Of a DNA stretch of 64,000 nucleotides, positions 11,806 through 27,310 are shown one piece after another (position 1 is the stretch's first letter; every line of letters begins with the position of its first letter). Under the pieces are notes generated by a model that saw only the letters and a program-made list of their open reading frames with translations, was not told where the DNA came from and searched no databases. The position numbers and the translations under genes were made by a program. Source of the DNA: Candidatus Omnitrophota bacterium (GTDB lineage Bacteria; Omnitrophota; Gorgyraeia; Gygaellales; Profunditerraquicolaceae); NCBI GenBank assembly GCA_041650835.1, contig JBAZKL010000002.1, forward strand, positions 270,477 through 334,476, read 5' to 3'.

Positions 11806-13234
11806 AACGTGGGATGAAAATTTCTGGGATTTAAGAACACTCTCTCAACTGACGCGCAAATACGCAGGAGGAGCGCCACTGGCGCTCCCCAGCTTAGCGG
11901 CACTGACTCCGAACGATGTTGAAGTAATACTTACCGATGAAAATGTTGAACCGGTCGATTTCGATGAAAAAGTCGACTTAGTAGGGATAACGGGAATGAC
12001 CTGCGTGATCCCGCGCGCCTACGCGATCGCGGATGAGTTCAGGAAAAGAAGGGTCCCGGTCATTATGGGAGGCATACACGCTTCTATGGTGCCGCAGGAA
12101 GCCGCGCAACACTGCGATTCGGTCGTTATCGGAGAAGCAGAAGATATATGGAAGCAGGTAATAGAAGATGCCCAGAAGGGCACTTTGCAAAAAACGTACC
12201 GCGCCCCCGGATTCCCCGACCTCACCCAAGCACCCGTCCCTCGCTGGGACCTCTTGAAAAACGAGCGCTATTGCTATTTCACCGTTCAAACCGGCCGCGG
12301 CTGCCCCTTTGATTGCGAGTTCTGTTCCGTGCAGAAATTCAACGGGAGGAATTACCGCTCCCGGGACATTGACCTGGTTTTAAAAGAAATATCCTTATTA
12401 AAGAGCTTTGATGAAAAAAGGTCGTTTTTCTTTGTCGACGATAATCTACTCGCGAGAAAGGATTACGCGAAAGACCTTTTCACGCGGCTCATTGAGTACC
12501 GGATAAAATGGTGGTGCCAGGCCTCAGTGGACAGCCTCAAAGACGATGAAACACTTACGTTGATGTTCAAATCAGGCTGCAGGGAAATATTCGTCGGCTT
12601 TGAATCAGTGCAGCAAAACAGTTTACGCGCGATGCACAAAACTCACATGAACAAGGCCGATGAATATAAAGACATTATTGCCAAAGCCCACGCTCATGGA
12701 TTATCGATCTTCGGATCATTCATCTTAGGAAGCGACTCTGACAATAGCGCTATTTTCCAAGAAACCCGAGATTTTATCAAAGAAACAAATATGGCTTTCG
12801 CTATGATCAACGTATTAACGCCTCCGCCCGGGACGGCGCTTTATTCGAGGCTGGAAAATGAGCAACGCCTTTTACCGTGCCCCTGGAATCAATACGACGG
12901 AGAACACGTGACCTTTACGCCTCATATCTTATCACTCCAGGAATTACGTGAAAAAAGGATCGAGCTCATAAAGGATCTTTACGCTTACAAAAATTTGTAC
13001 TCGAGGCTTTCACACCTCTGGAGCAAGGGAGTATTCTTACGGGAAAGAGGGCGCAAAGGATTATTTTCTAAAGGACGTATCTTATTTTCTCTCCTCATGA
13101 TCTTTCGCGCTTCCTGGTCCCAAACGGTCTTTACCTGGAAATGCTTATGGAGAAAAAACGCCACATCGGTCATAACAGTTTTACTTGCGATCAGTTTCCA
13201 TGATTATGCGCAGCGCCTTAAGGCAAAAAAATGA
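11771..13234 (+). CDS. B12-binding domain radical SAM protein
   Basis: N-terminal cobalamin-binding Rossmann domain (MKIKLIAP…VDLVGITGMT…MGGIHAS) followed by a radical-SAM CxxxCxxC (GCPFDCEFCS). Overlaps the upstream stop by 35 nt and the downstream start by 4 nt. Confidence 0.8.
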   Translation: MKIKLIAPKRLETWDENFWDLRTLSQLTRKYAGGAPLALPSLAALTPNDVEVILTDENVEPVDFDEKVDLVGITGMTCVIPRAYAIADEFRKRRVPVIMGGIHASMVPQEAAQHCDSVVIGEAEDIWKQVIEDAQKGTLQKTYRAPGFPDLTQAPVPRWDLLKNERYCYFTVQTGRGCPFDCEFCSVQKFNGRNYRSRDIDLVLKEISLLKSFDEKRSFFFVDDNLLARKDYAKDLFTRLIEYRIKWWCQASVDSLKDDETLTLMFKSGCREIFVGFESVQQNSLRAMHKTHMNKADEYKDIIAKAHAHGLSIFGSFILGSDSDNSAIFQETRDFIKETNMAFAMINVLTPPPGTALYSRLENEQRLLPCPWNQYDGEHVTFTPHILSLQELREKRIELIKDLYAYKNLYSRLSHLWSKGVFLRERGRKGLFSKGRILFSLLMIFRASWSQTVFTWKCLWRKNATSVITVLLAISFHDYAQRLKAKK

Positions 13235-15402
13235 ACTATACGTTTAACCTTTATTCGATACCGACATTTTTAACCGCACTTTTTCTTTTCAGCCTGGGTT
13301 TATCCGTTTTTTTACGGGATAAAAGGTCGGATATTAATTTCAGCTTTCTTTTAGTATGTTTATCCGCCACCATTTGGCAGATGGGTTATTCTTTCGTCTA
13401 TTTAAGCGCAGATCAACATACCGCGCGTATTTGGCAGAAATTCGTATATTTCGGGATCCCATTCCTATCCCCCGCGATGTACCACTTTTCAACCGCGTAC
13501 CTTAAACTGAAGCGGCAAAGGAAATATGTCATTTTATCTTATATTTTCGGCGTTTTCTTCCTTGTCATTAACCTTTTTTCGAATTTACTGGTAAGCGATG
13601 TAACGAAATATTTCTGGGGATATTATAAGAAAGCGGGGCCTTTGTACACCATTTTTCTCATTTTCTGGCTCGTCCCGGGAATTTCGACTATTTACAACTT
13701 ATACCGGGAGCGTAAAAAATTTACCAGCCCTCTTGAGCGGGAAAGAAGAAAATACATCTTTATCGCATTTTCCATCGTATTCATCGGATTCTGGGATTTC
13801 ATACCTGCCTATGGGGTTAATATTTATCCCTTTGGTTTTATCGGCGTAGTCGCATGCCTTTCCACGATAGCATACGCCATTGTGAAATACCGTCTTTTGG
13901 ATATTACCGTTGTTATCACGCGCGCGGCAGTATTTTTGGCGGTTTATTCCATAGTATTGGGGATCCCGTTTATTCTTTCCGCGGCACTCAAAGAATGGTT
14001 CATGAGGCACCTGGGCTCAAATTGGTGGATGGGGCCGTTTTCCGCCTTGGTCATCTTAGGTACCGGCGGGCCGTTTGTTTACGTTTACCTTGAAAAAAAG
14101 GCGCAATCGATACTATTACGGGAACAACGCCGTTATCAGGAAATTCTCAAGCATATAGCAGTTGATCTATCCCGGATACGCAATTTACAAAAACTGATCG
14201 ATTATATCGCTCTTACGGTAACCGATGTTGTCCGTATTTCCCACACGATCATATATGTTCATGATGCCAAAAAAGACGTTTTTCTTTTAAAAGCCGGCAC
14301 TCACTTAAAAGATTCCCAGCTGCAGGCGATCGACCGGAAGAATATCCTGATCTCCTGGCTTGAGAAAAAAAAGGAGCCGTTAGTATACGAAGAAATCAAG
14401 CACCGCGCTCATGAAACTGCCGATCCTGACTTTAAGAAGCTGGAAGATCAAATGAGAAAACTCAACGCCGCGGTTATTGTGCCCTGTTTCCTGCAGGAAA
14501 AAATAATGGACTTACTTGTCCTGGGAGAGAAAATCTCGGGAAAGATCTATAATTCAGACGATTTAACGAATTTTTCTTTTTTAGCCAGCGAAGCGGCCCT
14601 GGCAACAGAGAACGCTCAATTATACGGCAAGATCGAGGACGAAGTTAAACAGCGCACCGAAGAATTAGTCGATGTGCAGAAACAGCTTGTTCAAGCCGAA
14701 AAACTGGCTACCGTAGGCACCCTTGCCGGAGGAGTGGCCCATGAGATCAATAACCCGTTAACGGCGATATTGACTAATGTGCAAATACTCCTGATGAGCG
14801 GTGACACTCTGGATACCGATTCAAAAGAATCATTAGAGCTTATAGAAGAAGCAACGAAGCGCTGCCGAAACATTGTTCAAAAACTAATGGCATACGCGAA
14901 GAAGCCGCTGGAGGAGTCAAAGGTCGGCAGGGTATTGATATCCGACATATTAAATAAAGTGCTCGCGTTCTTAGGCTACCAGTTTGAACAAGATAACATA
15001 AAGATAGAAATAGAGGAAAGGGAAAAGAATTGTTTTGTTCTCGGCAACCAGAATGAATTAGAACAAGTACTAACGAATATCCTCATTAATGCCAAAGACG
15101 CTATCATAGGATTTAAAAAAGGCGGGACTATCGCTATTTCAGTAGCCAGAAGCGGCAAATGGATAAAAATCCAGATCAAAGACGAAGGTATCGGTATTCC
15201 CCGTGAGGTCATTCATAAAATATTTGACCCGTTCTTTACCACCAAGGATGTCGGCAAGGGATTAGGCCTCGGTTTATCGATATGCCAATCAATTATTGAA
15301 AAACACAAAGGGTTGGTCACGGTTGAGTCAGAAGTCAATAAAGGGACCATGTTCAACATTTTACTGCCGGATGCCAAAGAGATAAACGCCATTACAATCT
15401 AA
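13231..15402 (+). CDS. Sensor histidine kinase with N-terminal 7TM sensor, GAF-like, HisKA and HATPase_c domains
   Basis: Seven hydrophobic helices in the first 270 aa. Canonical H-box VAHEINNPL. HATPase N/G boxes (…NAKDAI…, GKGLGLGLS). Confidence 0.85.
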   Translation: MNYTFNLYSIPTFLTALFLFSLGLSVFLRDKRSDINFSFLLVCLSATIWQMGYSFVYLSADQHTARIWQKFVYFGIPFLSPAMYHFSTAYLKLKRQRKYVILSYIFGVFFLVINLFSNLLVSDVTKYFWGYYKKAGPLYTIFLIFWLVPGISTIYNLYRERKKFTSPLERERRKYIFIAFSIVFIGFWDFIPAYGVNIYPFGFIGVVACLSTIAYAIVKYRLLDITVVITRAAVFLAVYSIVLGIPFILSAALKEWFMRHLGSNWWMGPFSALVILGTGGPFVYVYLEKKAQSILLREQRRYQEILKHIAVDLSRIRNLQKLIDYIALTVTDVVRISHTIIYVHDAKKDVFLLKAGTHLKDSQLQAIDRKNILISWLEKKKEPLVYEEIKHRAHETADPDFKKLEDQMRKLNAAVIVPCFLQEKIMDLLVLGEKISGKIYNSDDLTNFSFLASEAALATENAQLYGKIEDEVKQRTEELVDVQKQLVQAEKLATVGTLAGGVAHEINNPLTAILTNVQILLMSGDTLDTDSKESLELIEEATKRCRNIVQKLMAYAKKPLEESKVGRVLISDILNKVLAFLGYQFEQDNIKIEIEEREKNCFVLGNQNELEQVLTNILINAKDAIIGFKKGGTIAISVARSGKWIKIQIKDEGIGIPREVIHKIFDPFFTTKDVGKGLGLGLSICQSIIEKHKGLVTVESEVNKGTMFNILLPDAKEINAITI

Positions 15403-15427
15403 AGGCAAGAAAAGGAGCGAACACGCT

Positions 15428-15802
15428 ATGAGTAAGAATATCCTGGTGATCGATGACGAAGATTTAGTGACGGAAAGCTTAAAACGCCTCCTTAAGAAGC
15501 AAGGGTATTTCGTCGCTGTTGCCGGTAATAACGCGGAAGCCATGAAAAAGATACAAGAACTCGATTTTGACCTCGTGGTATCGGATATACGGATTCCCGA
15601 AGTAAACGGGGTTGAAATTATCAAAAATATAAGGCATTATTATAAGGTATCCCAGAAAAAGCCCATACCGGAGATATTGATCACCGGATACTCCAGTGAT
15701 GAGCATTTGAAAGAGGCGCAGGCACTCAAAGTTGCCGATTATCTCTACAAGCCATTTGATATAAAAGATTTCCTGGAGATAATCAAAAAAAATCTAAAGT
15801 AA
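15428..15802 (+). CDS. Single-domain response regulator (receiver only)
   Basis: ILVIDDE…DLVVSDIRIPEVNG…K receiver motifs with no output domain. Confidence 0.8.
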   Translation: MSKNILVIDDEDLVTESLKRLLKKQGYFVAVAGNNAEAMKKIQELDFDLVVSDIRIPEVNGVEIIKNIRHYYKVSQKKPIPEILITGYSSDEHLKEAQALKVADYLYKPFDIKDFLEIIKKNLK

Positions 15803-15803
15803 T

Positions 15804-16274
15804 ATGAACCAACCGATATTTACCGCGGCCAAACAGCGCGAATTCGTCTTCGAACTCATCGTAACACAGGGGGATACGACCCCTTATGGAAGCGCTTCCT
15901 TTATTAACTATATCCGCTGGTACAATATTGCCCGGGACGCGCTCCTGGTCTGGAAAAACCTGGGGTTTGAGGACAGTTTAAAGCCGTTCATCGAAACCGA
16001 GGTTTCTTTCTGTGACGTGCAGTATAAGCGCGAAGCTGTTTTGCAGGACGAGATAGTCATTAAGGTCAACGCCGCGGATATAAAAGAAAAAGAATTTAAC
16101 CTGCTCTTCACCTTGATCCGTAAAGATAACGCGTTATTGATCAGCCTGGGGAAACAAAAGATATGCCTGCGCAACTCAAAAACAGGGGAAGTGGTCAATC
16201 TACCGGAAAATCTGGTCAAAAATATTTTGTCGCCTATTGCCGTCGATGAAAAATCACTGCTGTTCAAATATTAA
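15804..16274 (+). CDS. Hotdog-fold thioesterase-like protein (4HBT family)
   Basis: About 150 aa, secondary-structure pattern consistent with a hotdog fold. Assignment from weak family resemblance and context only. Confidence 0.4.
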   Translation: MNQPIFTAAKQREFVFELIVTQGDTTPYGSASFINYIRWYNIARDALLVWKNLGFEDSLKPFIETEVSFCDVQYKREAVLQDEIVIKVNAADIKEKEFNLLFTLIRKDNALLISLGKQKICLRNSKTGEVVNLPENLVKNILSPIAVDEKSLLFKY

Positions 16275-16281
16275 CGCTTAA

Positions 16282-16695
16282 ATGAAAACATTCAATGCGG
16301 GGTTTGATATCTATTTTGAGGACCTTTCAGCTTCAGGGAAAGTCCATTTGGAAAAGATCGGCGAATGGATGTCCATGACCCGCGAACAGTATTTTAAGTC
16401 TTCCTGCCCTGACCACCTCAAGTTCGTTGAAAGCCCCATACAGATGTTTACCATGGGATTGTCCATTACCGTAACGGGGAGCTCCCGCTGGGCGGATAGG
16501 ATCCAGGCGGTCCTTACGACCGCTAATATCAAAAAAATATCATTTGAAATGCATATAGACTTTAAAAACGAACGCACCGGCAAAGTGATCGCGAAAGGCG
16601 TGCAAAAGGTAGCCTTTGTCGATGTCGTAGCCAAGAAGTTCACTAATATTCCCGACGACATGAAACAGGTGATCATAAACTTTATTAACCCGTAA
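16282..16695 (+). CDS. Hotdog-fold thioesterase-like protein (4HBT family), second copy
   Basis: 137 aa paralog-like neighbour of the preceding gene. Weak assignment. Confidence 0.4.
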   Translation: MKTFNAGFDIYFEDLSASGKVHLEKIGEWMSMTREQYFKSSCPDHLKFVESPIQMFTMGLSITVTGSSRWADRIQAVLTTANIKKISFEMHIDFKNERTGKVIAKGVQKVAFVDVVAKKFTNIPDDMKQVIINFINP

Positions 16696-16727
16696 AAAAG
16701 GCGGCAAAGAAGTTTTACCATGGCTCT

Positions 16728-17429
16728 ATGAAAATATTAAATAATTTATACAAATACCTGGGCGATGTGTTGATCAAAACCTTCATCCTTTTCGCGGTAT
16801 TGATCATCCCCTTAACTGCGGTGGCCCTTAAATTCAAGTATGACTCTGTCGCTTACGGATGGTTTATGGTGGCTTTTATCTTTATTTTATCCATAGAAAG
16901 GACGTGGGAAACTTTCTATTCTTTTCAGGAAAAAAGAAAACATAAATTATACGGCGATTGGACGCTCGCGGTAGTATCAGTCGCTTATATACTTTTGATC
17001 TTTACGACCTTATTCGAGTTCTTTGTTTTTCCTGTCACCCTGAACATTACCCTCTCGCTCTATGGGTTATTCCTCTTTATTGCCGGGTTTTTACTGCGCT
17101 TATCGGGGATAAAAACCCTGAACCATCAATGGACAGTCCATGCAGTAGGAGCGAGCAAAATAAAAGATATTTACATTGTTAAATCGGGACCGTATAAATA
17201 TATGCGTCACCCGATCTATTTGGGCGTTATTCTCGAAGTCCTCAGTATCCCCTTGATCTGGAACGCTTACTTGGCTTTTTTTATCGCTTTAGCCTTAAAT
17301 GTGCCTTTGCAGATCATACGCGCTTATTTAGAAGAAAAAACATCGCTGCGGAGGTTCGGCGCAGATTTTACCAGGTACCTAAAAGAAACACCGGCATTCT
17401 TTCCTTATCGTATCACTAAAAGAAAATAA
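16728..17429 (+). CDS. Isoprenylcysteine carboxyl methyltransferase (ICMT)/PEMT-family membrane methyltransferase
   Basis: Multi-TM protein with the C-terminal SGPYKYMRHPIYLG…E……F core characteristic of ICMT/PEMT. Confidence 0.6.
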   Translation: MKILNNLYKYLGDVLIKTFILFAVLIIPLTAVALKFKYDSVAYGWFMVAFIFILSIERTWETFYSFQEKRKHKLYGDWTLAVVSVAYILLIFTTLFEFFVFPVTLNITLSLYGLFLFIAGFLLRLSGIKTLNHQWTVHAVGASKIKDIYIVKSGPYKYMRHPIYLGVILEVLSIPLIWNAYLAFFIALALNVPLQIIRAYLEEKTSLRRFGADFTRYLKETPAFFPYRITKRK

Positions 17430-19621
17430 TGTTCACCTCAATCAATCATTTCACCCTTTCAGCGCTCTTAACTTCAATAACTACGCTCTTCCTCGGGCTT
17501 TTTGTTCTGTTCAGGGGAGGGACGAAGCGAAAATCGTATTTCATTTTTACTCTTTACACGTTAAGCATCTCTTTATGGAGTTTTTCCGTTTCGCGCTTTG
17601 ACTCGACCCTCATTGATGACGTCCTGTTTTGGGGCCGCTTCCTCCATATGGGGGCGATCTTTATCCCTATTTTCGGACTACACTTTATACTTCACCTGCT
17701 TGAGATCAACAAACAAAATAAAGCAATTATTATAAGTTCCTACGCCGTCGGCGCGGTATTTACGTACTTTAATTTATTCACCTTGAAATTGATCAAGGGG
17801 ATCACCTATCGGTCAAATTATTCTTTTCCGACCCCCAGCACTTTATATCCGGCATTCTTTTTGTTTTTTGTTTTATGCACCGGATTCTGCTTAATGAAAT
17901 TATACTTCGGCTTTAAAGATTCAAAAAGCGAGATCGCGAATCAAAGAAAGTACCTTTTTTGGGGGTCATTGATCGGATACACCGGCGGGTTGAATAATTT
18001 CCTCATTACCGCTAATATTGAGATATTCCCGCTGCACCCATTCGGCGTTTACGCCATACTTATTTATGTCGCGATTTCCACGTACGCAATTATACGTTAC
18101 CGCCTTATGGACATATCGGTAGCCGTCACGAGAACGGGAGTATTTGTGGCAGTATACACCATAGTGCTGGGGATCCCGTTCGCGGTGGCTTATTTTTTAC
18201 GCTTGTGGCTGATCGGTATATTCGATATAAACTGGTGGGCAATACCGCTGTCGATAATGGCGGTTTTGGCTACCGTCGGACCGTTTATTTATATCTATTT
18301 TGAACGCAAGGCCGAAGACAGGCTTTTAAAAGAGCAAAAGCGCTATCAAAACACCCTGCGCCAGGCATCGATCGGCATGACGCGTATCCGCAGTTTACGC
18401 AAGTTGCTTGAGCTTATCGCGCATATAATCACGAAGACCGTGCGAATATCATTCGCCGCGGTATATCTTTTTCATGAAGCCGACGAAGAATACGTATTAC
18501 AGGTCTGCAGGGTCAAGAATAAAATGCTGGCGAGCAAACTATCGGCTCACTGCGCGTTGATCGAATGGATAAAAAACAACCAGGCCCCCTTGCTTTACGA
18601 AGAAATTAAACGCAAGATGATCGACGAAAAAAACACGGATTACCGATTGGTCGAAGAAGAGATGAGGCTCCTGGGTGCTTCGGTAATCCTTCCCAGTTTG
18701 CTGGAAAATAAGCTTTTAGGGCTATTGGTCCTGGGGAACAAACTTTCCGGCCGGATGTTCACCCCCGAAGACTTAAGCGTGTTCCAGGTCCTCGCCAGCC
18801 AGGCGGCCCTCGCCATTGAAAACGCCCAATTCTATGAAGATGCCAAAGAAATGCAGGGCCAGATCGCCCAGGCTGAAAAAATGGCTACTATCGGCACCAT
18901 GGCTGACGGATTGTCACACCAGATCAATAACCGCTTTTACGCGCTCTCCTTGATAGCGGGGGACACCATCGACACCATCAAAATGACCGACGCTTCAAAT
19001 TGTTCCACTGAGATCAAAGACATGTTAGGCCAGATCAACCACGCCCTTGAACGCATCCAATTCAATGTCCTCCAGGGAGGAGAGGTGGTCAAAGGTATCT
19101 TAAAATACACCCGTAAGGGCGATGAAGGCTTTGAAGCCCTTACCATGGACCAGGTCATTGACGGTACTTTAGCCATGGTGCAGTATAAAGTCAAATTAGC
19201 TGATTTCGACCTCATCCGGGAATACCCCTGCGACCTGGCGAAGATCAAAGGCAACCTCGTGCAACTGGAAGAAGTATTCTTCAACTTTATCGATAATGCC
19301 TATGATGCTATTGTAGAACGCAGATCAACGCTTAAAGAAGAAGGGTATCGGGGAAAAATAATCATCCGCGCCCAGGCACTGGATGCTGTTATGCGCATAG
19401 AGATACAGGATAACGGAATGGGAGTCAAAGAAGAAAACGCAAAAAAGCTCTTCACCCCTTTCTTTACCACTAAAGTATCTTCGCGCAGAGGCACAGGGCT
19501 GGGGTTATACGTCATCAACAAGATCATTACCGAAACCCATAAAGGCAAGATATTCATTGAATCACAGCATACAATCGGCACGAAATTCATCGTCGAGCTG
19601 CCTATCGCCGCACAAACGTAA
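17429..19621 (+). CDS. Sensor histidine kinase with 7TM sensor, GAF-like and atypical HisKA, plus HATPase_c
   Basis: Same architecture as 13231-15402. The H-box reads MADGLSHQINNRFYAL rather than HEINNP. ATP-lid GTGLGLYVINKI. The start overlaps the upstream stop (TAATG). Confidence 0.75.
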   Translation: MFTSINHFTLSALLTSITTLFLGLFVLFRGGTKRKSYFIFTLYTLSISLWSFSVSRFDSTLIDDVLFWGRFLHMGAIFIPIFGLHFILHLLEINKQNKAIIISSYAVGAVFTYFNLFTLKLIKGITYRSNYSFPTPSTLYPAFFLFFVLCTGFCLMKLYFGFKDSKSEIANQRKYLFWGSLIGYTGGLNNFLITANIEIFPLHPFGVYAILIYVAISTYAIIRYRLMDISVAVTRTGVFVAVYTIVLGIPFAVAYFLRLWLIGIFDINWWAIPLSIMAVLATVGPFIYIYFERKAEDRLLKEQKRYQNTLRQASIGMTRIRSLRKLLELIAHIITKTVRISFAAVYLFHEADEEYVLQVCRVKNKMLASKLSAHCALIEWIKNNQAPLLYEEIKRKMIDEKNTDYRLVEEEMRLLGASVILPSLLENKLLGLLVLGNKLSGRMFTPEDLSVFQVLASQAALAIENAQFYEDAKEMQGQIAQAEKMATIGTMADGLSHQINNRFYALSLIAGDTIDTIKMTDASNCSTEIKDMLGQINHALERIQFNVLQGGEVVKGILKYTRKGDEGFEALTMDQVIDGTLAMVQYKVKLADFDLIREYPCDLAKIKGNLVQLEEVFFNFIDNAYDAIVERRSTLKEEGYRGKIIIRAQALDAVMRIEIQDNGMGVKEENAKKLFTPFFTTKVSSRRGTGLGLYVINKIITETHKGKIFIESQHTIGTKFIVELPIAAQT

Positions 19622-19623
19622 TT

Positions 19624-20226
19624 ATGCACAGGTTCCTTACCGAGACAGTTTTTAGCTCTTTATACGGCATCATTACCGTTTTATTTGCCTGTGAACGCAT
19701 GACAGCCACGATATCCGCGGCACGGAAATCCGTAAAACAGCCCCCCCAGTTGCTCACCACTATCCCGTTGCTCACCTACTGCTTATTAGCTTTTGCGGCG
19801 GTCATTGAATATTTCATAGGGAGCAGGGCGCTCAATTACTGGATAAGCGCCTGCGGCTTCGCGATTTTTATGACCGGCATAAAACTTCGTACTGCAGCAA
19901 TTAAAGAATTTGCCGATAACTGGAATATACATATTACTGCCAAGTCCATAAAAAAGATCATAACTTCGGGGCCGTACTGTTTTGTCCGGCACCCGTATTA
20001 TTTAGCAGTCATACTTGAATTAACCGGTTTTTCATTAATTTCCAACTCATATTTTACCCTTACGGCGGTAGCGCTCATCCAACTGCCGCTGCTTTTAATG
20101 CGTATCGATCGGGAAGAAAAAGAGTTAGAAGATAAATTCCCCGGTATATATTTACCTTACAAGAAAACGGTTAACGCTTTATTGCCCGCCCTGCGGGGGC
20201 CGTTGAGGCAGACGAAAGGAAGATGA
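19624..20226 (+). CDS. ICMT/PEMT-family membrane methyltransferase, second copy
   Basis: SGPYCFVRHPYYLAVILE…REEKELEDKF core. Confidence 0.6.
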   Translation: MHRFLTETVFSSLYGIITVLFACERMTATISAARKSVKQPPQLLTTIPLLTYCLLAFAAVIEYFIGSRALNYWISACGFAIFMTGIKLRTAAIKEFADNWNIHITAKSIKKIITSGPYCFVRHPYYLAVILELTGFSLISNSYFTLTAVALIQLPLLLMRIDREEKELEDKFPGIYLPYKKTVNALLPALRGPLRQTKGR

Positions 20227-21266
20227 CCATGCATCAAGTATGCGATCTCATAAAGACTTTAGGAGCCAAGCAGGTAATTGATATTAAGAGGGCTCACGAA
20301 GAGATGTTAAAATATTCGCGCAGTTACATGACGCTCCATTGCATGGTCTGCCTCTTAAACGTCGGCTTCTTCGAAAGCATGGACGCGCAAGGAAAAGTAA
20401 ACTGCGCTGACTTCTCGCGACAGAAGCATTTAGAAAAAGAAATACTGGCTATCCTCTGTGAATACCTTTTTGCCACGCGCATGTTCGGCCGTTCGGGAAA
20501 CGACTATTTTCTAACAAAACAGGGCGCGTATTCGCTTACCTATGCTCAAGGGGCATTTTATTTCATCCACGCGTACGCTCCAATATTCGAGAACCTGGAT
20601 GCGCTGCTCAAAAAACAAAAAGTATACGGAAAAGATATTTTCCGCAGGGAAAGATCTGTTTCTAAAGCAAGCGCGGAAACCGAAAAATGGCTGCCATTCC
20701 CCATCGCCTGCGACATCATCAGGAAATACAAATTTAAAAGAGTGCTGGATCTCGGATGCGGGAGCGCCGAATTCCTCATGAGCCTCTGCAGCCGGGAAAA
20801 AGGGCTGTACGCCTGCGGCATTGATGTCTCCGCGGAATCCATCCAGTATGCCCAAGGCTTGATCAATAAGCGGGGAATGGACAAAAAAATAAGATTACTT
20901 GTTGGAGATATCTTTAAAATTGATACAATAGATGAGGATTTAGGTACTGTCGATGCCATTACCAGCATGTATGTCGTGCATGAGTTTATCGGAGATGACT
21001 TAACAAAAATAACCGAGCTTTTCAAAAAAATCAGGGCCCGATTCAGGGGCGCCTCCGTCATCATCTGCGAGCTCTGCAGGCAGCCCTCGGCACTAATACG
21101 CAAAAACGCTTCCGCTATCGCTGAACATCATCTCTTTCACGCGCTGGCCAAGCAACGCCTTCTCTCCCGGGAAGAGTGGAGGGAATTATTCAAGAAAACT
21201 GGTTATGAGGTCGTTGAAGAACGGCGCTTTGATTTCGCCAGCCAATGTTATTTTGTCTTAAAATAA
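20223..21266 (+). CDS. Class I SAM-dependent methyltransferase (O-methyltransferase-like)
   Basis: Motif I VLDLGCGSAEFL and post-I acidic LLVGDIF, with an N-terminal helical domain like small-molecule O-MT dimerisation domains. Confidence 0.65.
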   Translation: MTMHQVCDLIKTLGAKQVIDIKRAHEEMLKYSRSYMTLHCMVCLLNVGFFESMDAQGKVNCADFSRQKHLEKEILAILCEYLFATRMFGRSGNDYFLTKQGAYSLTYAQGAFYFIHAYAPIFENLDALLKKQKVYGKDIFRRERSVSKASAETEKWLPFPIACDIIRKYKFKRVLDLGCGSAEFLMSLCSREKGLYACGIDVSAESIQYAQGLINKRGMDKKIRLLVGDIFKIDTIDEDLGTVDAITSMYVVHEFIGDDLTKITELFKKIRARFRGASVIICELCRQPSALIRKNASAIAEHHLFHALAKQRLLSREEWRELFKKTGYEVVEERRFDFASQCYFVLK

Positions 21267-21273
21267 AGAAATT

Positions 21274-23454
21274 ATGAACAATTTCGCAATTTCAGCCTTA
21301 TTAACTTCCCTGACCACGTTATTTTTGGCATTATTCGTATTTATCAAGAACCCTAATGCCAAACTAAACAGGATTTTCACGCTTTATTCCTTGTGCATCG
21401 CTGTGTGGAGCTTCTTTGTCTCAATACACGGCTTTACCAGAAGCCAGGCGACATCAATGTTTGCGGCGCACGCCCTGCATATCGGCGCGGCATCTATTCC
21501 CGTCACTTTTGTGCATTTTGTCATGGTATTCCTTAACGATATAATCACCCCGTTCAAAAAATGGCTCCTGCGGCTCATGTATCTCATAGCCTGCGTATCA
21601 GCAACGGCAGGATTTACCCCTTTATTCGTAAAAGAGGTCACTGCCCGGCATAACGTCCTCTATCTCATGAAGCCCGGTGGGGTATGGTACCATCTTTTTG
21701 TATTTTATTTTGCTGCCTGCGTTTCTTACGGTTTATACCGCCTTTTCCTGGAATATATACGCTCAAAAGGCCTGCGGCATAACCAGATGAAATACCTCTT
21801 CTGGAGCTCGCTCTTTGGGTTTATCGGCGGGATCAATAATTTCCTTATCATCTATGATATCGATATATTCCCCTTGAACCCCTACGGCACGTACGCCGTA
21901 CCGCTTTATGTGTGCGTCGCCACCTATGCCATCATCAAATACCGTTTCATGGATATTAAAGTTGCCATAACCCGCACCGGTATTTTTGTGCTTGTTTACA
22001 CTTTTGTTTTAGGGATCCCCTTTGCGGTAGCATTATTGGCGAAATATTGGCTGATCAGCGTATTTAACCTTAATTGGTGGGCGGTCCCCTTGATCTTAAT
22101 GGCGGTTTTAGCGACTGTCGGCCCGTTCATTTATATTTACTTAGAAAGCAAAGCGGAGGGGAGGATCCTCAAAGAACAAAAAAGGTACCAGGACACGTTA
22201 AAACAGGCCTCGATCGGAATGACGCGCATTAGAAGCCTGCGCAGGCTTTTGGACCTGATCACCCACATCATTACCAAAACGGTGAGGATTTCTTTTGCGG
22301 CGATCTATCTTTTTCACGCGGATGAGCAGGAATTCACTTTACAGGTATGCAGGGACAGGGGAAGAGTGCTTACTAAAAAATTACCGGCGAGAAATCCTCT
22401 CTTTACCTGGCTCAACAAAAACAGGCAGCCGCTGGTATATGAAGAAGTAAAGAGGAAAATGCAGGACTTTAATGAACCGGTATACAAAACGCTGGAAGAG
22501 AACATGCGCCTGTTGACCGCGGCAGTCATAATCCCCAGCTTCCTGGAAAACAAGCTTTTAGGCTTTATTGTGCTCGGAGATAAACTTTCCGGCCAAATTT
22601 ACACGCTTGAAGACCTCAATGTTTTCCAGGTCCTTGCCAGCCAGGCAGCCTTAGCCATTGAAAACGCGCAATTCTATGAAGAAGCCAAAGAAATGCAGAG
22701 CCAGATCGCCCAGGCTGAGAAGATGGCTACTATCGGCACTATGGCTGACGGATTGTCGCACCAGATCAATAACCGCTTTTACGCGCTCTCCTTGATCGCG
22801 GGCGACACCATCGATACTATCAAAATGACCGATACTTCAGCCTGCTCCAAAGAAATAAAAGACATGTTTGAACAGATAAACCACGCCCTTGACCGCATCC
22901 AGACCAATGTTTTACAGGGAGGCGAAGTAGTGCGAGGCATCTTAAAATATACCCGTAAAGGAGATGAAGGCTTTGAAGCCCTGACCATGGACCAGATAAT
23001 CGACGGGACTCTCGCTATGGTCCAATACAAAATAAAACTTTCTGAAATAGACTTTGTCCGCGAATACCCGCAAGATCTGGCAAAAATAAAAGGCAACCTC
23101 GTACAGTTAGAAGAAGTATTCTTTAATTTTATCGATAATGCCTATGACGCTATTGTTGAACGCCGCACCATGCTCAAAGAACCGGGCTACAAAGGAAAGC
23201 TCGTCATCCACGCGAGGCGACAAGACAATATTATCCGCATAGAGGTGCAAGACAACGGGATGGGAGTAAAAGAAGAGAACTTGAACAAGCTTTTCGCACC
23301 CTTCTTTACGACAAAAGTATCTTCAAGGAGGGGGACAGGGCTTGGTTTATATGTTATCAACAAGATCATCACTGAGACCCATACTGGAAAGATATTCATA
23401 GAATCCACGCATAAATCGGGCACCCGCTTTATCGTAGAGCTGCCTGCCGCCTAA
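21274..23454 (+). CDS. Sensor histidine kinase, recent paralog of 17429-19621
   Basis: C-terminal 1.1 kb is roughly 90% identical in nucleotide sequence to 18.5-19.6 kb (…QAALAIENAQFYEEAKEMQSQIAQAEKMATIGTMADGLSHQINNRFYALSLIAGDTIDTIKMTD…). The 7TM sensor region has diverged. Confidence 0.75.
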   Translation: MNNFAISALLTSLTTLFLALFVFIKNPNAKLNRIFTLYSLCIAVWSFFVSIHGFTRSQATSMFAAHALHIGAASIPVTFVHFVMVFLNDIITPFKKWLLRLMYLIACVSATAGFTPLFVKEVTARHNVLYLMKPGGVWYHLFVFYFAACVSYGLYRLFLEYIRSKGLRHNQMKYLFWSSLFGFIGGINNFLIIYDIDIFPLNPYGTYAVPLYVCVATYAIIKYRFMDIKVAITRTGIFVLVYTFVLGIPFAVALLAKYWLISVFNLNWWAVPLILMAVLATVGPFIYIYLESKAEGRILKEQKRYQDTLKQASIGMTRIRSLRRLLDLITHIITKTVRISFAAIYLFHADEQEFTLQVCRDRGRVLTKKLPARNPLFTWLNKNRQPLVYEEVKRKMQDFNEPVYKTLEENMRLLTAAVIIPSFLENKLLGFIVLGDKLSGQIYTLEDLNVFQVLASQAALAIENAQFYEEAKEMQSQIAQAEKMATIGTMADGLSHQINNRFYALSLIAGDTIDTIKMTDTSACSKEIKDMFEQINHALDRIQTNVLQGGEVVRGILKYTRKGDEGFEALTMDQIIDGTLAMVQYKIKLSEIDFVREYPQDLAKIKGNLVQLEEVFFNFIDNAYDAIVERRTMLKEPGYKGKLVIHARRQDNIIRIEVQDNGMGVKEENLNKLFAPFFTTKVSSRRGTGLGLYVINKIITETHTGKIFIESTHKSGTRFIVELPAA

Positions 23455-23541
23455 CAGATCAATCCGCTGTATTTTTATTTCAAAAGCCCCCGTTCAAATC
23501 GTCATTGAAAAGAAAAAATATTTTTACTCCGAACTCAAAAA

Positions 23542-23550
23542 TGATATAAT
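23542..23550 (+). promoter_or_regulatory. Extended -10 element TGATATAAT upstream of the DUF2079 gene
   Basis: TG-n-TATAAT at 23542-23550, 79 nt before ATG 23629, in a 170-bp gap after the third kinase. Confidence 0.35.
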
Positions 23551-23628
23551 TGTTCATTGATCCGGAATTTAGCCATGCCGCGTATTACTTTTCGCAATTA
23601 CCGCGGCTTAAAGATATAGATAACACTC

Positions 23629-25542
23629 ATGCCTACTCGGCCGATATCCGATATAAAAGAACGCAGCGTTATTATATTTCTTACCACGAGCGTCATTCTC
23701 TATGTAGCCTTTTTAACCGTTCTTTGTTTCCTCAAATACCGCGCCTTTACGTACTGGGATTTTGACCTTGCGGTTCACTCTCAGATCATGTGGAATATGC
23801 TCCACGGATCACTCGATAGCTCTATTTTAGGGGTAAATTTCTTCGGCAACCACGTCCATCCCGTTTCCTTCTTATTTGCGCCGGTGTACATGCTGTTTCC
23901 GCATCCTCTTACACTCCTGTTCTTACAGTCCTTGGCGTTAGGAGCGGGCGCCTTCCCGCTCTACTATCTGGCAAGGCTGCTGGTTGGCTACCGATGGGCT
24001 TTGGTTATCGCATTACTATACCTTATCAATCCCTTAACGGCATATATTAATTTATACGAATTCCATCCTGTAGCTTTCTCTATCTTTTTCCTGCTCTGCG
24101 CGCTTTATTACTACCAAAAAGGCAATTTCAGGAACTACTTGCTATTTCTCTTACTCTCAATGGCCTGCCAGGAAAATATCGCTCTTGCCGCTATAGCGCT
24201 CGGCTTACACGCGCTCTCCAAACATAAAAGCCGCTCCTGGATAATCACGCCGATACTTTTAGGAACGGCTTATTTTTTACTGTGCATATTCCTCATCATA
24301 CCGCACTGCGCCAAAGGTATAATAGAATTCATTAATATATACAAACATCTCGGCGATTCATATACCGGCATCCTGCTCAAGATCGTTACCCAGCCCGGAG
24401 AAATTTTAAAGATCATGTTCTCCTGGGGGAAACTCAAGTACCTCAATGAGCTTTTCGCGTTGTTCCTGTACCTGCCGCTCTGGTCGCCTTCAAGTCTGTT
24501 TCCGGCGCTTCCTTTTCTTATTCAGCATTTATTATCCATACGGGATTCGGAAACCATGATCATGTTCCATTATACCGCGGAAATGATACCATTTCTTCTT
24601 TTCGCGTATGTCAACGGCTTAAAAAAGGTACTCTCTCAGGAATGGGTTAAAAAGAATAAACCGGCGGCGGCGGCGGCTATATTCTTAACTTCTTTTTTCC
24701 TAAGCGCTCATATGGGGCCGTATATCGGTTTGATAAACAAATATAACATTTACCTGCAAAAAAGCCCGCTCGACCTGGACAAGGAGCTCATCCTGAAGGA
24801 AATCTCACCTCATGAACCCGTAATTGCCACCTTTGAATTCCTGCCGCATCTTACTCACCGTAAATCTCTCTATTCTTTTCATCATTTATATATCGGGGTC
24901 CACACTATGTCGAAAAAGAAATATTATTTACCCCCTGACGCCCGCTCGGCATTGATAGATTTTAACGACCCTCAGACTTTCTACGCTTTTTTCAAGGATA
25001 AACCCGTGTCTACCTTTAACACCTTTATTAACTCTGACGAATGGAAAGCGCAGCGGGTGATCAATAACCTCGTTTTATTTCAAAAGGGAGAGAGCGAAAA
25101 ATACCCGCTTTACGAAATACTCAAAACGAATTCCGAAATTGAAAATAACAACCCCTGCGCGCTTAGCTGTTCAATTGAATTACTGGGACACGGCCCGGTC
25201 AAAATAAATAATACCTGTTTGGACTTTGCCGTATATTGGCGCTCCACGGGAAAAACAAACAAAGACATCGGCGTTTACTATGCCGTCGAAGATGTTGCCG
25301 GGGAAAAATGTTTTTTTAATTTATTTTCTCCGTTATGCTACACGATATTTCCCGCATATTTATGGGAACCCGGCTGTATCATAAAAGAATACAAGTATTT
25401 AAAACTGCCGAACGGCCTGCCGGAGGGAAGGTATAAACTGCTGATCACGTTCATTGACAAAATCACGAACGAAACCATAAAACCGCCGCGCGCGGATCCA
25501 AACGGGATGATCTTGTTAACCGAGTTTACCATTAATGAGTGA
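23629..25542 (+). CDS. DUF2079-family polytopic membrane protein (GT-C-like fold) with a large C-terminal soluble domain
   Basis: About 10 TM helices with the motifs …YRAFTYWDFDLAVHSQIMWN…GVNFFGNHVHP…YMLFPHP…PLYYLAR…, which I recognise as DUF2079. Confidence 0.5.
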   Translation: MPTRPISDIKERSVIIFLTTSVILYVAFLTVLCFLKYRAFTYWDFDLAVHSQIMWNMLHGSLDSSILGVNFFGNHVHPVSFLFAPVYMLFPHPLTLLFLQSLALGAGAFPLYYLARLLVGYRWALVIALLYLINPLTAYINLYEFHPVAFSIFFLLCALYYYQKGNFRNYLLFLLLSMACQENIALAAIALGLHALSKHKSRSWIITPILLGTAYFLLCIFLIIPHCAKGIIEFINIYKHLGDSYTGILLKIVTQPGEILKIMFSWGKLKYLNELFALFLYLPLWSPSSLFPALPFLIQHLLSIRDSETMIMFHYTAEMIPFLLFAYVNGLKKVLSQEWVKKNKPAAAAAIFLTSFFLSAHMGPYIGLINKYNIYLQKSPLDLDKELILKEISPHEPVIATFEFLPHLTHRKSLYSFHHLYIGVHTMSKKKYYLPPDARSALIDFNDPQTFYAFFKDKPVSTFNTFINSDEWKAQRVINNLVLFQKGESEKYPLYEILKTNSEIENNNPCALSCSIELLGHGPVKINNTCLDFAVYWRSTGKTNKDIGVYYAVEDVAGEKCFFNLFSPLCYTIFPAYLWEPGCIIKEYKYLKLPNGLPEGRYKLLITFIDKITNETIKPPRADPNGMILLTEFTINE

Positions 25543-27244
25543 GCATAACGATACGTTCAGCCAGGAGTATGTTTGTTGCAATTTATGCGGCGCCGATAAT
25601 TATACCATCGTCTATAAATCTTACTCCGGGGATATATCGGCGCTCAAGAAGGATTACGCGATAACCGACCACACGCTTGAGCCCCCGCCGCGCCTTGTCA
25701 AATGCCGGCATTGTGATCTTATATATGCTAATCCCCGTCAGCCTGCGCAAGTATTAAGTTCAACCTATAAAAGCATGAGGGACGAAGCTTATATCCAGGA
25801 GGAGAAAGGAAGGCGCTTAGCGGACCGGGCGATCTTGCGGGTACTCAAAAAAATGGGAAAAACAGGCCGGCTGCTGGAAATAGGATGCGCGACCGGGTTT
25901 TTTTTGGACGAAGCGCGAAAATCCGGATGGGAGGTTTACGGCGTGGAATTGTCATCCTGGGCAGTCAGCTATGCTCACGACAACCTTAAAATAGATTCTA
26001 TCTTCGAAAGCTCCTTGCAGGAAAAACGCTTTAACGCCAATTACTTTGACGTTGTTTTAATGAAAGACACTTTAGAACATGTCGTTGACCCCCGGGGGCT
26101 TCTCAATGAATCCAGAAGGATACTGAAAAATAACGGTATCATCTGCATTACTACCCCCGATATAGACAGCCTGATCAGCAGGATATTAAAAGCGCGCTGG
26201 TGGGGGATTAAACAGTACCATATCTATTATTTTACGCGCAAGACTTTATTCGCGATGTTAGGCGCTTGCGGTTTTATCCCGGTTAAGAACAAATCGCATA
26301 CCCGGATATTCAGCCTGCGCTATTGGATCAGCAGATTTAAATCGTATAACCGGTTCCTGCACGACTTTTTTATATTTCTCATTCAACGCCGCATAATACG
26401 CGACGTGTTGTTTCCAGTCGACTTTAAAGACCAGATCGAAGTTTACGCGAAGAAATCACGTAAGCTGGAATACTTGGAAGAGTTGGAAGCACAGCCTGAG
26501 AAAGAACACAGGAACAACCTTAAAACCGTAGTAGTACTGCCCGCGTATAACGCGGCGTTGACCCTCGCTAAGACCGTAGCTGATATTCCCCGTGAAGTTG
26601 TCGATGACATTATCCTTGTCGATGATGCCTCAACCGACCATACCGTTGCAACAGCGCGGCAATTGAAGCTGAAAGTATTTACGCACGAAAAAAACAAAGG
26701 CTACGGAGCAAACCAAAAAACCTGCTATAAAAAGGCTTTAGAACTCGGCGCAGACATTGTCATTATGGTCCACCCTGATTACCAGTACGACCCGAAAGCG
26801 ATCCGCGAGCTCATCACTCCGATAAAACAGGGTAAGGCAGATGCCGTTTTTGGCTCCCGGATGATGAAGGGGGGGGCACTCATCGGCGGCATGCCCCTCT
26901 GGAAGCAGAATGTCAATATAATCCTTACTGCTCTTCTCAATATTTCTTTCAGCACATTTCTTACGGAATATCACTCCGGCTTCAGGGCATATTCGGCAAA
27001 AGCGCTTCATTCGATCCATTACCCCTTAAATAGCGATACTTTCGTTTTTGACACCGAGATCATCGCGCAGATATTACTTCGCGGCCTTAAGATCGAAGAG
27101 ATCCCCATTCGGACCAGGTACTTTGACGAGGCGTCAACGATTAAATTCTTGCCTGCCGTTTTTTACGGCCTCGGGATATTATTAACTATCGGGAAATATA
27201 TTTTACACACGCGTACTTTTATACGCTTCAGACAATTTAAATAA
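25535..27244 (+). CDS. Fusion: class I SAM methyltransferase (N-terminal) and family-2 glycosyltransferase (C-terminal)
   Basis: N-terminal zinc-ribbon-like CCNLCG…CRHC, then MT motif I LLEIGCATGFFL. The C-terminal half carries GT2 signatures VVVLPAYNAALTL…ILVDDASTDHT…. Confidence 0.7.
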   Translation: MSEHNDTFSQEYVCCNLCGADNYTIVYKSYSGDISALKKDYAITDHTLEPPPRLVKCRHCDLIYANPRQPAQVLSSTYKSMRDEAYIQEEKGRRLADRAILRVLKKMGKTGRLLEIGCATGFFLDEARKSGWEVYGVELSSWAVSYAHDNLKIDSIFESSLQEKRFNANYFDVVLMKDTLEHVVDPRGLLNESRRILKNNGIICITTPDIDSLISRILKARWWGIKQYHIYYFTRKTLFAMLGACGFIPVKNKSHTRIFSLRYWISRFKSYNRFLHDFFIFLIQRRIIRDVLFPVDFKDQIEVYAKKSRKLEYLEELEAQPEKEHRNNLKTVVVLPAYNAALTLAKTVADIPREVVDDIILVDDASTDHTVATARQLKLKVFTHEKNKGYGANQKTCYKKALELGADIVIMVHPDYQYDPKAIRELITPIKQGKADAVFGSRMMKGGALIGGMPLWKQNVNIILTALLNISFSTFLTEYHSGFRAYSAKALHSIHYPLNSDTFVFDTEIIAQILLRGLKIEEIPIRTRYFDEASTIKFLPAVFYGLGILLTIGKYILHTRTFIRFRQFK

Positions 27245-27310
27245 GCATCCCCGTCCTTCAAAAGGAAAAACTATGCCCGGAATACGCTTACCAATACCCA
27301 AGAGCGTTAT

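Follow-up and report, generated by a model that had tools for sequence, protein, structure and literature searches.

The locus and its kinase family

The 64,000-nucleotide (nt) window analysed here is a stretch of contig JBAZKL010000002.1 (assembly GCA_041650835.1) from a Candidatus Omnitrophota bacterium. It contains five close-packed genes, ICMT1-K2-ICMT2-MT-K3, embedded in a conserved Omnitrophota lipid-tailoring operon (Table 1). K2 and K3 are paralogous sensor kinases with a seven-transmembrane (7TM) input domain, ICMT1 and ICMT2 are methyltransferases of the ICMT/PEMT family, and MT is a class-I S-adenosylmethionine (SAM) methyltransferase. A further kinase, K1, lies upstream, followed by a gene for a REC-only response regulator, and the genes of the region are uniformly on the + strand. 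The K2 protein is a 100% match to an NCBI entry from a Candidatus Omnitrophota metagenome-assembled genome (MAG), where it is labelled merely as an ATP-binding protein. An earlier note on this DNA had described the kinases as recent duplicates, each coupled to an ICMT gene; the comparisons given below point to an older pair of genes, in one of which the sensor half appears to have been exchanged together with the gene upstream of it.

Members of the K2/K3 family are composed of HisKA_7TM, two transmembrane (TM) helices, a GAF domain, a divergent HisKA-class dimerization and histidine phosphotransfer (DHp) domain with the motif GLSHQINNR, and a catalytic and ATP-binding (CA) domain. Domain calls were made by Pfam and NCBIfam profile searches. 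HisKA_7TM (PF16927, gathering score 28.6 bits) scores 34.2 bits in K2, 59.7 bits in K3, and 58.1 bits in K1, and HATPase_c (PF02518) scores 77.8 and 81.4 bits in K2 and K3, respectively. No match to HisKA (PF00512) was obtained in K2 or K3 at E <= 0.01, whereas K1 scores 51.6 bits. The AlphaFold2 model of K2, with a mean predicted local distance difference test score (pLDDT) of 75, places seven TM helices at residues 7-224 with pLDDT 80-95, in agreement with a hydropathy scan, shows two more, conserved TM helices at 235-292 ahead of GAF, DHp, and CA, and has two helices at 446-518 and 527-562 (DHp hairpin), which are of low confidence as a monomer. Its best Foldseek matches are DHp-CA structures, and His497 of K2 aligns with the phospho-accepting His of ThkA (AHEIRNP) and CckA (AHDFNN). 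In common with ThkA (3a0r), CckA (5idj), FixL/YF1 (4gcz), ZraS (9jfj), and LvrB (8vc9), these kinases have a DHp hairpin with a CA domain, an Asn four residues after the His (H+4), and the ATP-lid boxes; unlike the solved HisKA structures, K2 and K3 have HQINNRF in place of HEIRNPL (Gln for Glu/Asp and Phe for Pro) and a longer DHp loop. Judged by sequence and predicted fold, the transmitter is of the HisKA class.

The H-box of K2 and K3 had been called non-canonical, which is correct: K1 has AHEINNPL, whereas K2 and K3 read SHQINNRFYALSL. The motif SHQ[IVL]NNR was found in 81/81 kinases of the loci examined and in 120/120 top matches of a protein search, so that the unusual H-box is a family signature rather than a local novelty. 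This search with K2 gave more than 1200 matches, and the top 120 are all proteins of ~720 residues with the same domain set. A collection of species-representative genomes yielded 506 matching stretches, the 80 best of which were used for the context analyses described below; nearly all of these 80 belong to Omnitrophota, or to unclassified bins labelled by their submitters as Planctomycetales. The family is large and almost exclusively found in Omnitrophota. The literature on HisKA_7TM and on Omnitrophota kinases was found to hold no description of it. A protein search with the DHp region only, tried as another route to its distribution, brought up nothing beyond short pieces of family members and gave no information on this point.

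In an alignment of 24 sequences, GLSHQINNR, most of DHp helix 1, and the ATP-binding boxes are all invariant, and the N, G1, F, and G2 boxes of the CA domain read NFIDNAYDA, DNGMGV, FTPFFTTK, and GTGLGL throughout the family. The residue following the phospho-accepting His (H+1) is Gln (Gln498 in K2 and its equivalent in K3) and not acidic, without exception among the 81 locus kinases and the 120 top matches. The H+4 residue, Asn501 in the HQINN of K2, is also invariant and fits the Thr/Asn position of the phosphatase motif, and an invariant Asp is present at H-4. In the HisKA kinases that have been tested, kinase activity depends on an acidic H+1 residue and phosphatase activity on a Thr or Asn at H+4 (PMC3510030). 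The absence of an acidic H+1 residue and of the helix-kinking Pro, together with the longer inter-helix DHp loop, accounts for the failure of the Pfam HisKA model to detect the family.

Exchange of sensor halves and upstream genes

The replaced segment was delimited by comparison with related loci, designated here by L numbers. A blastn alignment of the window with L001, from MAG CAZPNW01, is collinear at 85% nt identity over 9256-16723 and resumes at 88% over 18098-19815, with no nt homology between them, and the gap corresponds to ICMT1 and residues 1 to ~225 of K2. At this site, L001 and L081, which carries the same kinase as L001, have a REC gene, a gene for a 710-residue Polyketide_cyc/Acyl_transf_2/methyltransferase protein, and a 7TM domain that is 35% identical to that of K2. 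Beyond the 7TM domain, the K2 and L001 kinases are 92-98% identical (linker/GAF 92%, DHp 98%, and CA 95%). At the left junction, the spacer upstream of ICMT1 aligns with L001, L081, and L002 through AAGxAGTTTTACxATGG and then diverges; it retains the Shine-Dalgarno sequence and the ATGG start context of the REC gene of the relatives, a relic start site which indicates that the arrangement in the window is derived. At the right junction, nt identity rises from ~0.5-0.67 to 0.93 over residues 226-240 of K2. The likely crossover site is a motif after TM helix 7, YAIxRYRLMDI..TRTG..VLGIPF, which is conserved at the nt level in K1, K2, and K3 (13873-13970, 18083-18180, and 21925-22022; 68-72% nt identity; repeat family D2). 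These alignments show that, in this genome, ICMT1 and the 7TM domain of K2 evidently replaced a receiver gene, a START/acyltransferase/methyltransferase gene, and another 7TM domain.

Relatives of the incoming segment are present in L082 and L163, which have the order TE-TE-ICMT-kinase, where TE denotes a thioesterase gene. Their ICMTs are 49-54% identical to ICMT1 and 31-36% to ICMT2; for the 7TM domains, identity is 59-61% with K2 and 41-43% with K3, whereas the cytoplasmic parts are no nearer to K2 than to K3. Both thioesterases of the window are members of this recurrent REC-TE-TE-ICMT-kinase block. The GC content at third codon positions is 0.48-0.53 in the cassette and 0.59 in the flanks; a foreign origin was considered on this ground and set aside, since the 7TM domain of K1 is equally low and the signal is too weak.

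The same junction recurs elsewhere in the family. Window-by-window profiles of the proportions of synonymous and nonsynonymous differences (pS and pN) along kinase pairs have a step at residues 225-250 in other pairs too, and the control pairs K3/L003 and K3/L002 are uniform along the gene. The kinases of L009 and L015 are 97% identical in the cytoplasmic part and 22% in the 7TM domain, with 39% identity between the acyl-reductase-type proteins encoded upstream; no nt homology is present 5' of codon ~219, and identity is 90% over 10 kb downstream. Similarly, L056 and L063 are 87% identical in the cytoplasmic part, 24% in the 7TM domain, and 39% in the upstream enzyme. The flanks of such swap pairs are ~85-90% identical at the nt level, i.e., the exchanges lie between species. 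Among members of one 7TM type, purifying selection acts on the domain (pN/pS ~0.1 for K3 and L003). By these comparisons, the 7TM domain and the gene or genes immediately upstream of it are seen to be inherited and exchanged as one cassette, with the crossover apparently falling in the conserved post-TM7 motif.

The sole same-species pair, L026/L029, comes from single-cell genomes of one species, and here the cassette is common and the transmitter different. The two share 9 kb at 100% identity, ending at about residue 300 of the kinase, and are 89-92% identical beyond this breakpoint over the remaining kinase and the REC gene, the genomes being otherwise ~97% identical. The breakpoint (within ~2000-12500) looks like a recent within-species recombination in the same gene.

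K2 and K3 had been taken for recent duplicates with ~90% nt identity over their GAF, DHp, and catalytic halves and with diverged sensors. The divergence of the 7TM halves is borne out (42% amino acid and 37-60% nt identity), but the identity measured elsewhere is only 56-69% over GAF and 63-86% (mean ~80%) over DHp and CA. The proteins are 66% identical overall, with 69% in the linker/GAF, 87% in DHp, and 81% in CA; in windows of 30 codons, nt identity peaks at 94% in a single window, and a repeat search found 71% nt identity over 300 nt across GAF and DHp. According to Nei-Gojobori estimates, pS between K2 and K3 is 0.78-0.82, i.e., saturated, for 7TM, linker, and GAF, while dS is 0.8 for DHp, 1.5 for CA, and 0.30 over 46 H-box codons, and dN/dS is ~0.1 wherever measurable. 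Saturation of synonymous sites over the N-terminal two thirds means that the duplication is old. Moreover, K3 is the positional orthologue of the L003 kinase (also from MAG CAZPNW01) and of the sole family kinase of L002, and it is nearer to both than to K2: identity to the L003 kinase is 95% overall (7TM 97%, linker/GAF 96%, DHp 95%, and CA 91%) and to the L002 kinase 86% (87, 88, 84, and 82%, respectively).

A short tract over the H-box stands apart, with 136/143 nt (95%) identical between K2 and K3 against 74-80% for the remaining transmitter. Identity at third codon positions is 41/47 within the tract and 71/126 outside it (p = 1.3e-4). The pS of the tract between K2 and K3 is 0.27, the same as between K2 and its own orthologue, and that between K3 and its own orthologue is 0.42. 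Constraint on codons or nucleotides was considered as a source of the tract and ruled out, as the family-wide median pS of the H-box peptide is 0.83 although the peptide is invariant. The tract looks like a short gene conversion. The L002 kinase (10004-12205) is a mosaic of another kind, being K3-like in its N-terminal half and closer to K2 in DHp (94% vs 84%) and CA (88% vs 82%); simple unequal crossing-over was rejected as its origin, for it does not yield a K3-like N-terminus with a K2-like DHp. The comparisons show K2 and K3 to be, in all appearance, old mosaic paralogues whose transmitter halves exchange sequence, the conversion tract being a recent case, and not the products of a recent duplication. 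Two other Omnitrophota loci, L018 (6421-12163) and L062 (2976-6885), have two family kinases in tandem, and tandem paralogues thus recur in this kinase family.

Each kinase was also said to be preceded by an ICMT gene with an overlap of 1-4 nt. This is true of ICMT1 and K2, which overlap by 1 nt, but K3 is directly preceded by MT. Nor do the two units form a duplicated cassette, as ICMT1 and ICMT2 are only 33% identical (64/195) and the units differ in gene content. ICMT2, MT, and K3 are kept together in L002, where K2 is absent, and in L003 and L081. ICMT1 scores 53.6 bits with PF04140 and 44.1 bits with PF04191, and ICMT2 scores 60.7 and 37.1 bits. ICMT1 aligns with Ma-ICMT (4a2n) at E = 1.4e-8 with the RHPxY and EE motifs matched, and ICMT2 aligns to it as well, in both cases over the cofactor-binding C-terminal half. 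With the isoprenylcysteine O-methyltransferase equivalog (NF040696), the two ICMTs reach 45.7 and 57.9 bits, below the 160-bit cutoff; ICMT2 has a weak, sub-threshold match (1.9e-9) to LmtA, the lipid A methyltransferase of Leptospira, and both ICMTs are below every equivalog cutoff. MT belongs with Methyltransf_23/31/25/11 and resembles 2-ketoarginine methyltransferases at 117 bits vs a cutoff of 425. Protein prenylation is not known from bacteria of this kind, which makes a lipid a likelier substrate of ICMT1 and ICMT2 than isoprenylcysteine.

Homologues of ICMT1 number ~85 proteins at 34-54% identity, except for three close copies at 87-100%; an ICMT1-like copy that is 96% identical (P0122) occurs in strains close to that of the window. 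A HisKA_7TM kinase lies downstream in 12/13 of the ICMT1-clade loci examined. It directly follows the ICMT, often with a 4-nt overlap, in seven distinct loci (L082, L083/L168, L085, L086, L163/164, L167, and L169/170), and in five it is separated by one gene (L087-L090) or by three (L165/166). Some of these kinases have a canonical HisKA H-box or lack the GAF domain, so that the pairing of ICMT with 7TM spans different transmitter types. As a background, ~70 generic ICMT loci had a kinase nearby in two cases; many of those contigs are short, and the scan of metagenomes yielded mostly generic ICMTs, as one of its patterns was the family-wide GPYxxxRHP motif, which makes it a rough background only. 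The adjacency that the earlier note had proposed to be a functional couple is thus recurrent; the sensing of a methylated ligand, proposed with it, is taken up below as a possible mechanism. The possibility that kinases of this family generally adjoin an ICMT gene was also considered and rejected, since an ICMT is beside the kinase in only 3/80 loci (from two genomes, close relatives). The ICMT-kinase pairing is one instance of the varied lipid-tailoring enzymes that are encoded upstream of these kinases. Two of the ICMT-linked loci have further features: in L169, a bAvd/23S_rRNA_IVP-family gene (9079-9444) comes straight after the 7TM kinase, bAvd being an accessory protein of diversity-generating retroelements, and in L167 (1-3778), a groundwater contig, a giant gene of 4192 residues (faint RHS/TcdB and weak peptidase C39 matches) and an IS110 transposase gene lie upstream of REC-TE-TE-ICMT-kinase.

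Throughout the family, the gene upstream of the kinase was identifiable for 70 members and belongs to many unrelated families: FAD amine-oxidase/desaturase-like (15), class-I methyltransferase (12), ketoacyl synthase (11), NAD-binding reductase-like (7), acyl-reductase of the NAD_binding_4 type (5), aldehyde dehydrogenase (3), GMC oxidoreductase (2), GDSL lipase (2), and AfsA hotdog (1). The identity of 7TM domains is ~26% on average irrespective of that of the cytoplasmic parts (r = 0.14). Where both members of a pair have the same upstream family, identity is higher by 9.9 points in the 7TM domain, a difference reached by 0/5000 label permutations, and by only 2.2 points in the cytoplasmic part (104/5000). 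The nearest neighbour shares the upstream family for 45/64 kinases when judged by the 7TM domain vs 26/64 when judged by the cytoplasmic part, and within an upstream family, the identity of the upstream proteins correlates with that of the 7TM domains at r = 0.57-0.66 vs 0.36-0.46 for the cytoplasmic parts. These statistics ignore kinship, and adjacency alone predicts part of the effect.

Only one receiver had been counted for the three kinases, and this holds within 13-24 kb; a second REC gene, followed by a gene for a GAF-HD protein, is present further downstream. A REC gene directly follows the kinase in 53/80 family kinases of the examined loci, and the usual order after it is a ~390-residue GAF-HD protein and then glycosyltransferase and acyltransferase genes. 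The copy of this module in the window (40322-44586) is separated from K3 by DUF2079, methyltransferase-GT2, and secretion genes; as the module directly follows the kinase in most relatives, a rearrangement in the lineage of the window is indicated, and it is found in L002 as well. The receiver at 40322 has a mean identity of 60% to the 53 kinase-following RECs, and the receiver at 15428 only 29%. The latter is 86-89% identical to the REC that follows K1 in L001 and L002, and the order of K1 and REC is kept in relatives. The GAF-HD protein, encoded third in the conserved kinase-REC-HD order, is 62% identical to its homologue in L082. Over the phospho-accepting His and the 25 residues that follow it, DHp helix 1 is the same in K2 and K3, and in HisKA kinases, this region bears much of the partner-determining surface, so K2 and K3 probably share one partner. 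The receiver at 40322 is the probable partner of both.

Interpretation and alternatives

The preferred reading, to which a probability of roughly 0.6 is assigned, joins these observations: K2 and K3 are old mosaic paralogues, their 7TM domains are exchanged in cassettes with enzyme genes, each 7TM domain senses a lipid of the adjacent enzyme, and the output is convergent. The ligand of each 7TM domain would be a lipid that the neighbouring enzyme produces or alters and that is recognised within the membrane; in the case of K2, it would be a lipid methylated by ICMT1 on a carboxyl or phosphate group. K2 and K3 would then converge on the receiver at 40322 and its GAF-HD partner, beside glycolipid and acyltransferase genes, and the outcome would be several lipid sensors with one constant output. 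It is from the arrangement of the genes that we infer the sensing of the enzyme product by the kinase.

Several points weigh against this reading. The 7TM domain and the upstream gene are expected to be inherited together from adjacency and a recombination hotspot even if they are not functionally coupled, and in some pairs, such as L052/L051 and L039/L042, the upstream enzymes are of the same family and the 7TM domains are unrelated. Many upstream enzymes are soluble proteins, and ICMT1 and ICMT2 are assigned to ICMT/PEMT only as a family, far under the NCBIfam equivalog cutoffs. The Gln at H+1 in place of an acidic residue means that K2 and K3 may not be ordinary kinases, and the candidate receiver is 17 kb away in this genome. 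Furthermore, the 80 loci of the context analyses were picked for their similarity to K2 and are not independent of one another in phylogeny.

Comparable arrangements are known from peptide signalling. In ComQXPA, a variable modifying enzyme and the N-terminal multi-TM sensor of ComP co-vary, and the cytoplasmic kinase part is conserved (PMC4008528). As in this system of Bacillus subtilis, ICMT1 and the 7TM domain were swapped here and residues 240-730 of K2 remained 92-98% identical; unlike it, the locus has no peptide pheromone gene, its enzymes tailor lipids or small molecules and are not ComQ, its kinase is HisKA-class with a GAF domain rather than HisKA_3, and the variation is between related species rather than strains. 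In staphylococcal agr, a hypervariable block (agrB, agrD, and the sensor half of agrC) ends inside the receptor kinase gene, and the constant half is common to the groups. The variable block of the present locus likewise ends at the sensor/kinase boundary inside the kinase gene. In agr, the signal is a peptide thiolactone and the receptor AgrC a kinase of the HPK10 type with 6-7 TM helices, whereas no evidence of a secreted signal is found here. DesK with des, CqsS with CqsA, and BceS with BceAB are membrane-input kinases encoded beside the enzyme, synthase, or transporter that they monitor; K2 and K3 are unrelated to them in sequence and differ in having a hypervariable, modular 7TM domain and enzyme partners that change by locus. 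PrsK (TIGR02916) is similar in its polytopic N-terminus, its GAF, DHp, and CA domains, and a gene neighbourhood for envelope or exopolysaccharide synthesis, and TIGR02916 aligns over residues 320-725 of K2 and K3 and over the full length of K1. However, scores of 86-100 bits vs a cutoff of 300 and a different H-box make K2 and K3 non-members, and no exosortase gene or PEP-CTERM context was found among the scanned neighbours.

A recent tandem duplication of an ICMT-kinase unit, followed by fast divergence of the sensor, would account for the position of K2 and K3 in direct orientation 3842 nt apart, their common unusual H-box, a 38-nt exact match, the 95% tract, and the ICMT-family gene upstream of each. 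It is contradicted by the saturation of synonymous sites over 7TM, linker, and GAF, by the greater closeness of K3 to its orthologues, by the low identity of the two ICMTs with an additional methyltransferase before K3, and by the presence of ICMT2-MT-K3 without K2 in L002, and the H-box is invariant family-wide. A recent segmental duplication should also leave high and roughly uniform identity over the whole repeated unit, the accompanying gene included, but the kinases vary between 37% and 95% in nt identity along their length. This explanation was refuted by the synonymous-site and orthologue comparisons and is highly improbable. Another explanation takes the locus as a pherotype-like system, in which variable enzymes tailor a diffusible lipid-like signal, the matched 7TM domain is the receptor, and a swap of the cassette changes the signalling group. 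Such a system would have a variable enzyme and multi-TM sensor with a conserved kinase and a block ending at the sensor/kinase boundary, as in the window and L001, L009/L015, and L056/L063. The upstream enzymes include AfsA-hotdog, LuxD-like acyltransferase, ketoacyl synthase, and thioesterase types, and the within-species breakpoint of L026/L029 falls in the same gene. No signal gene, precursor, exporter, or synthase-receptor pair was identified, however, and the swaps observed are between genomes ~85% identical at the nt level rather than between alleles of one species. Strains near that of the window carry the same ICMT1 (P0122), and the downstream envelope glycolipid enzymes suit homeostasis equally, so that a signalling system of this kind is judged improbable.

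The association may also be one of linkage only, with a kinase gene that straddles the edge of a variable island, a post-TM7 motif that serves as a convenient crossover, and a 7TM domain that varies independently of the enzyme under general membrane sensing or surface-directed diversifying pressure. The nt conservation of the junction motif even in K1 provides homology for recombination, several pairs combine the same enzyme family with unrelated 7TM domains, and third-position GC of the cassette is slightly below that of the flanks. On the other hand, similarity between 7TM domains is tied more closely to the type and sequence of the upstream gene than to the remainder of the kinase itself, a 7TM kinase is retained beside ICMT1-clade genes across three transmitter types, and purifying selection acts on the 7TM domain within a type; linkage alone is considered unlikely. 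A further proposal, which is compatible with the other models, is that K2 and K3 are mainly phosphatases or pseudokinases, with Gln replacing the acidic residue. The Gln at H+1 and the Asn at H+4 in all kinases of the loci and all top matches are in its favour, whereas the invariant boxes of the CA domain argue for continued ATP use, and the invariant Asp at H-4 could substitute. Kinase families lacking an acidic H+1 residue (HisKA_2/HWE) still autophosphorylate, which also counts against it. A mainly phosphatase or pseudokinase role is considered unlikely.

HisKA_7TM is a widespread sensor domain whose ligand is not known (PMC5847659). The exchange of the 7TM domain with an identifiable enzyme gene provides concrete candidates for ligands as well as natural domain-swap variants. 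A wider reading, in which Omnitrophota possess a modular lipid-sensing network of enzyme and matched 7TM cassettes, a fixed junction, an invariant HQINNR transmitter, and one REC/HD output on glycolipid genes, is rather doubtful; if true, it would give the first ligand class for HisKA_7TM, the peptide pherotype loci would have a counterpart based on lipids, and there would be a HisKA lineage able to function with no acidic residue beside the phospho-histidine. The invariant Gln contradicts the HisKA rule and marks a large group that is missed by Pfam HisKA and labelled by NCBI as ATP-binding protein. A fixed intragenic crossover, together with conversion over the partner-specificity helix, suggests how paralogous kinases may diversify their input and keep a single output, which bears on how cross-talk is avoided or put to use in two-component networks. 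For annotation, similarity of the transmitter half alone is not evidence for a recent duplication. Nothing here is categorically new; the system is a distinctive variant of two-component signalling.

Genomic surroundings

Table 1. Features of the 64,000-nt window mentioned in the text, in order of position.
Feature	Position	Strand	Remarks
Acyl-ACP-reductase-like protein	8568-9611	+	TIGR04058-like, sub-threshold
PlsC-type acyltransferase	9627-10223	+	
START/polyketide-cyclase fused to acyl-ACP-reductase-like domain	10210-11805	+	TIGR04058-like, sub-threshold
B12-binding radical-SAM enzyme	11771-13234	+	Like HpnJ, PhpK, and ladderane radical-SAM enzymes, sub-threshold
K1 kinase	13231-15402	+	HisKA_7TM, HisKA, HATPase_c; canonical H-box AHEINNPL
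REC-only response regulator	15428-15802	+	K1-following type
4HBT-type thioesterase TE1	15804-16274	+	
4HBT-type thioesterase TE2	16282-16695	+	
TE2-ICMT1 spacer	16696-16727	+	Left junction of replaced cassette
Replaced cassette	16724-~18140	+	ICMT1 and K2 7TM domain (residues 1 to ~235)
ICMT1, 233 residues	16728-17429	+	Polytopic ICMT/PEMT-family methyltransferase; 1-nt overlap with K2
K2 kinase, 730 residues	17429-19621	+	HisKA_7TM, GAF, HATPase_c
K2 7TM domain (residues 1-224)	17429-18100	+	
K2, two TM helices (residues 235-292)			
K2 GAF domain (residues 321-465)			
K2 DHp domain (residues 466-600)			
K2 CA domain (residues 601-730)			
Post-TM7 junction motif in K2	18083-18180	+	Likely crossover site
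K2 conversion tract over H-box	18812-18954	+	Codon of phospho-accepting His497 at 18917-18919
ICMT2, 200 residues	19624-20226	+	ICMT/PEMT-family methyltransferase; 4-nt overlap with next gene
MT, class-I SAM methyltransferase, 347 residues	20223-21266	+	Between ICMT2 and K3; 7-nt gap to K3
K3 kinase, 726 residues	21274-23454	+	K2 paralogue; HisKA_7TM, GAF, HATPase_c
K3 partner of conversion tract	22654-22796	+	His codon at 22759-22761
DUF2079 membrane protein	23629-25542		
Methyltransferase-GT2 fusion	25535-27244		
Type II secretion/type IV pilus cluster	28642-40255		
Second REC-only response regulator	40322-40690	+	
GAF-HD (HD_5) protein	40697-41866	+	
MGDG-synthase-like, LpxL-like, and GT2 genes	41869-44586		

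The operon structure of the region is based solely on gene spacing, as a promoter and terminator scan of 8000-27500 gave no enrichment over shuffled sequences (44 vs 33.8 ± 6.4 and 21 vs 23.5 ± 5.3, respectively). The synteny of the lipid-type gene set upstream of the ICMT1-K2-ICMT2-MT-K3 genes (8568-16695) is kept in many Omnitrophota loci, and this set may constitute a pathway for a fatty aldehyde or alcohol or for an unusual lipid. The stretch between K3 and the second receiver (23629-40255) also encodes an unknown protein of 387 residues, and its set of type II secretion or type IV pilus-like components is complete (GspE, GspF, pseudopilins, PilM/N, and secretin).

Elsewhere in the window, two open reading frames on the same strand (48995-50020 and 49768-50820) overlap by ~250 nt, which could reflect a frameshift, a mis-called start, or a genuine overlap. 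Genes for tRNA-Met(CAT) and tRNA-Val(CAC) lie side by side at 60128-60329, and the valyl-tRNA synthetase gene is at 1781-4468. Near the start of the window, a DUF1257 protein (1100-1528) adjoins a double zinc-ribbon protein (318-1022).

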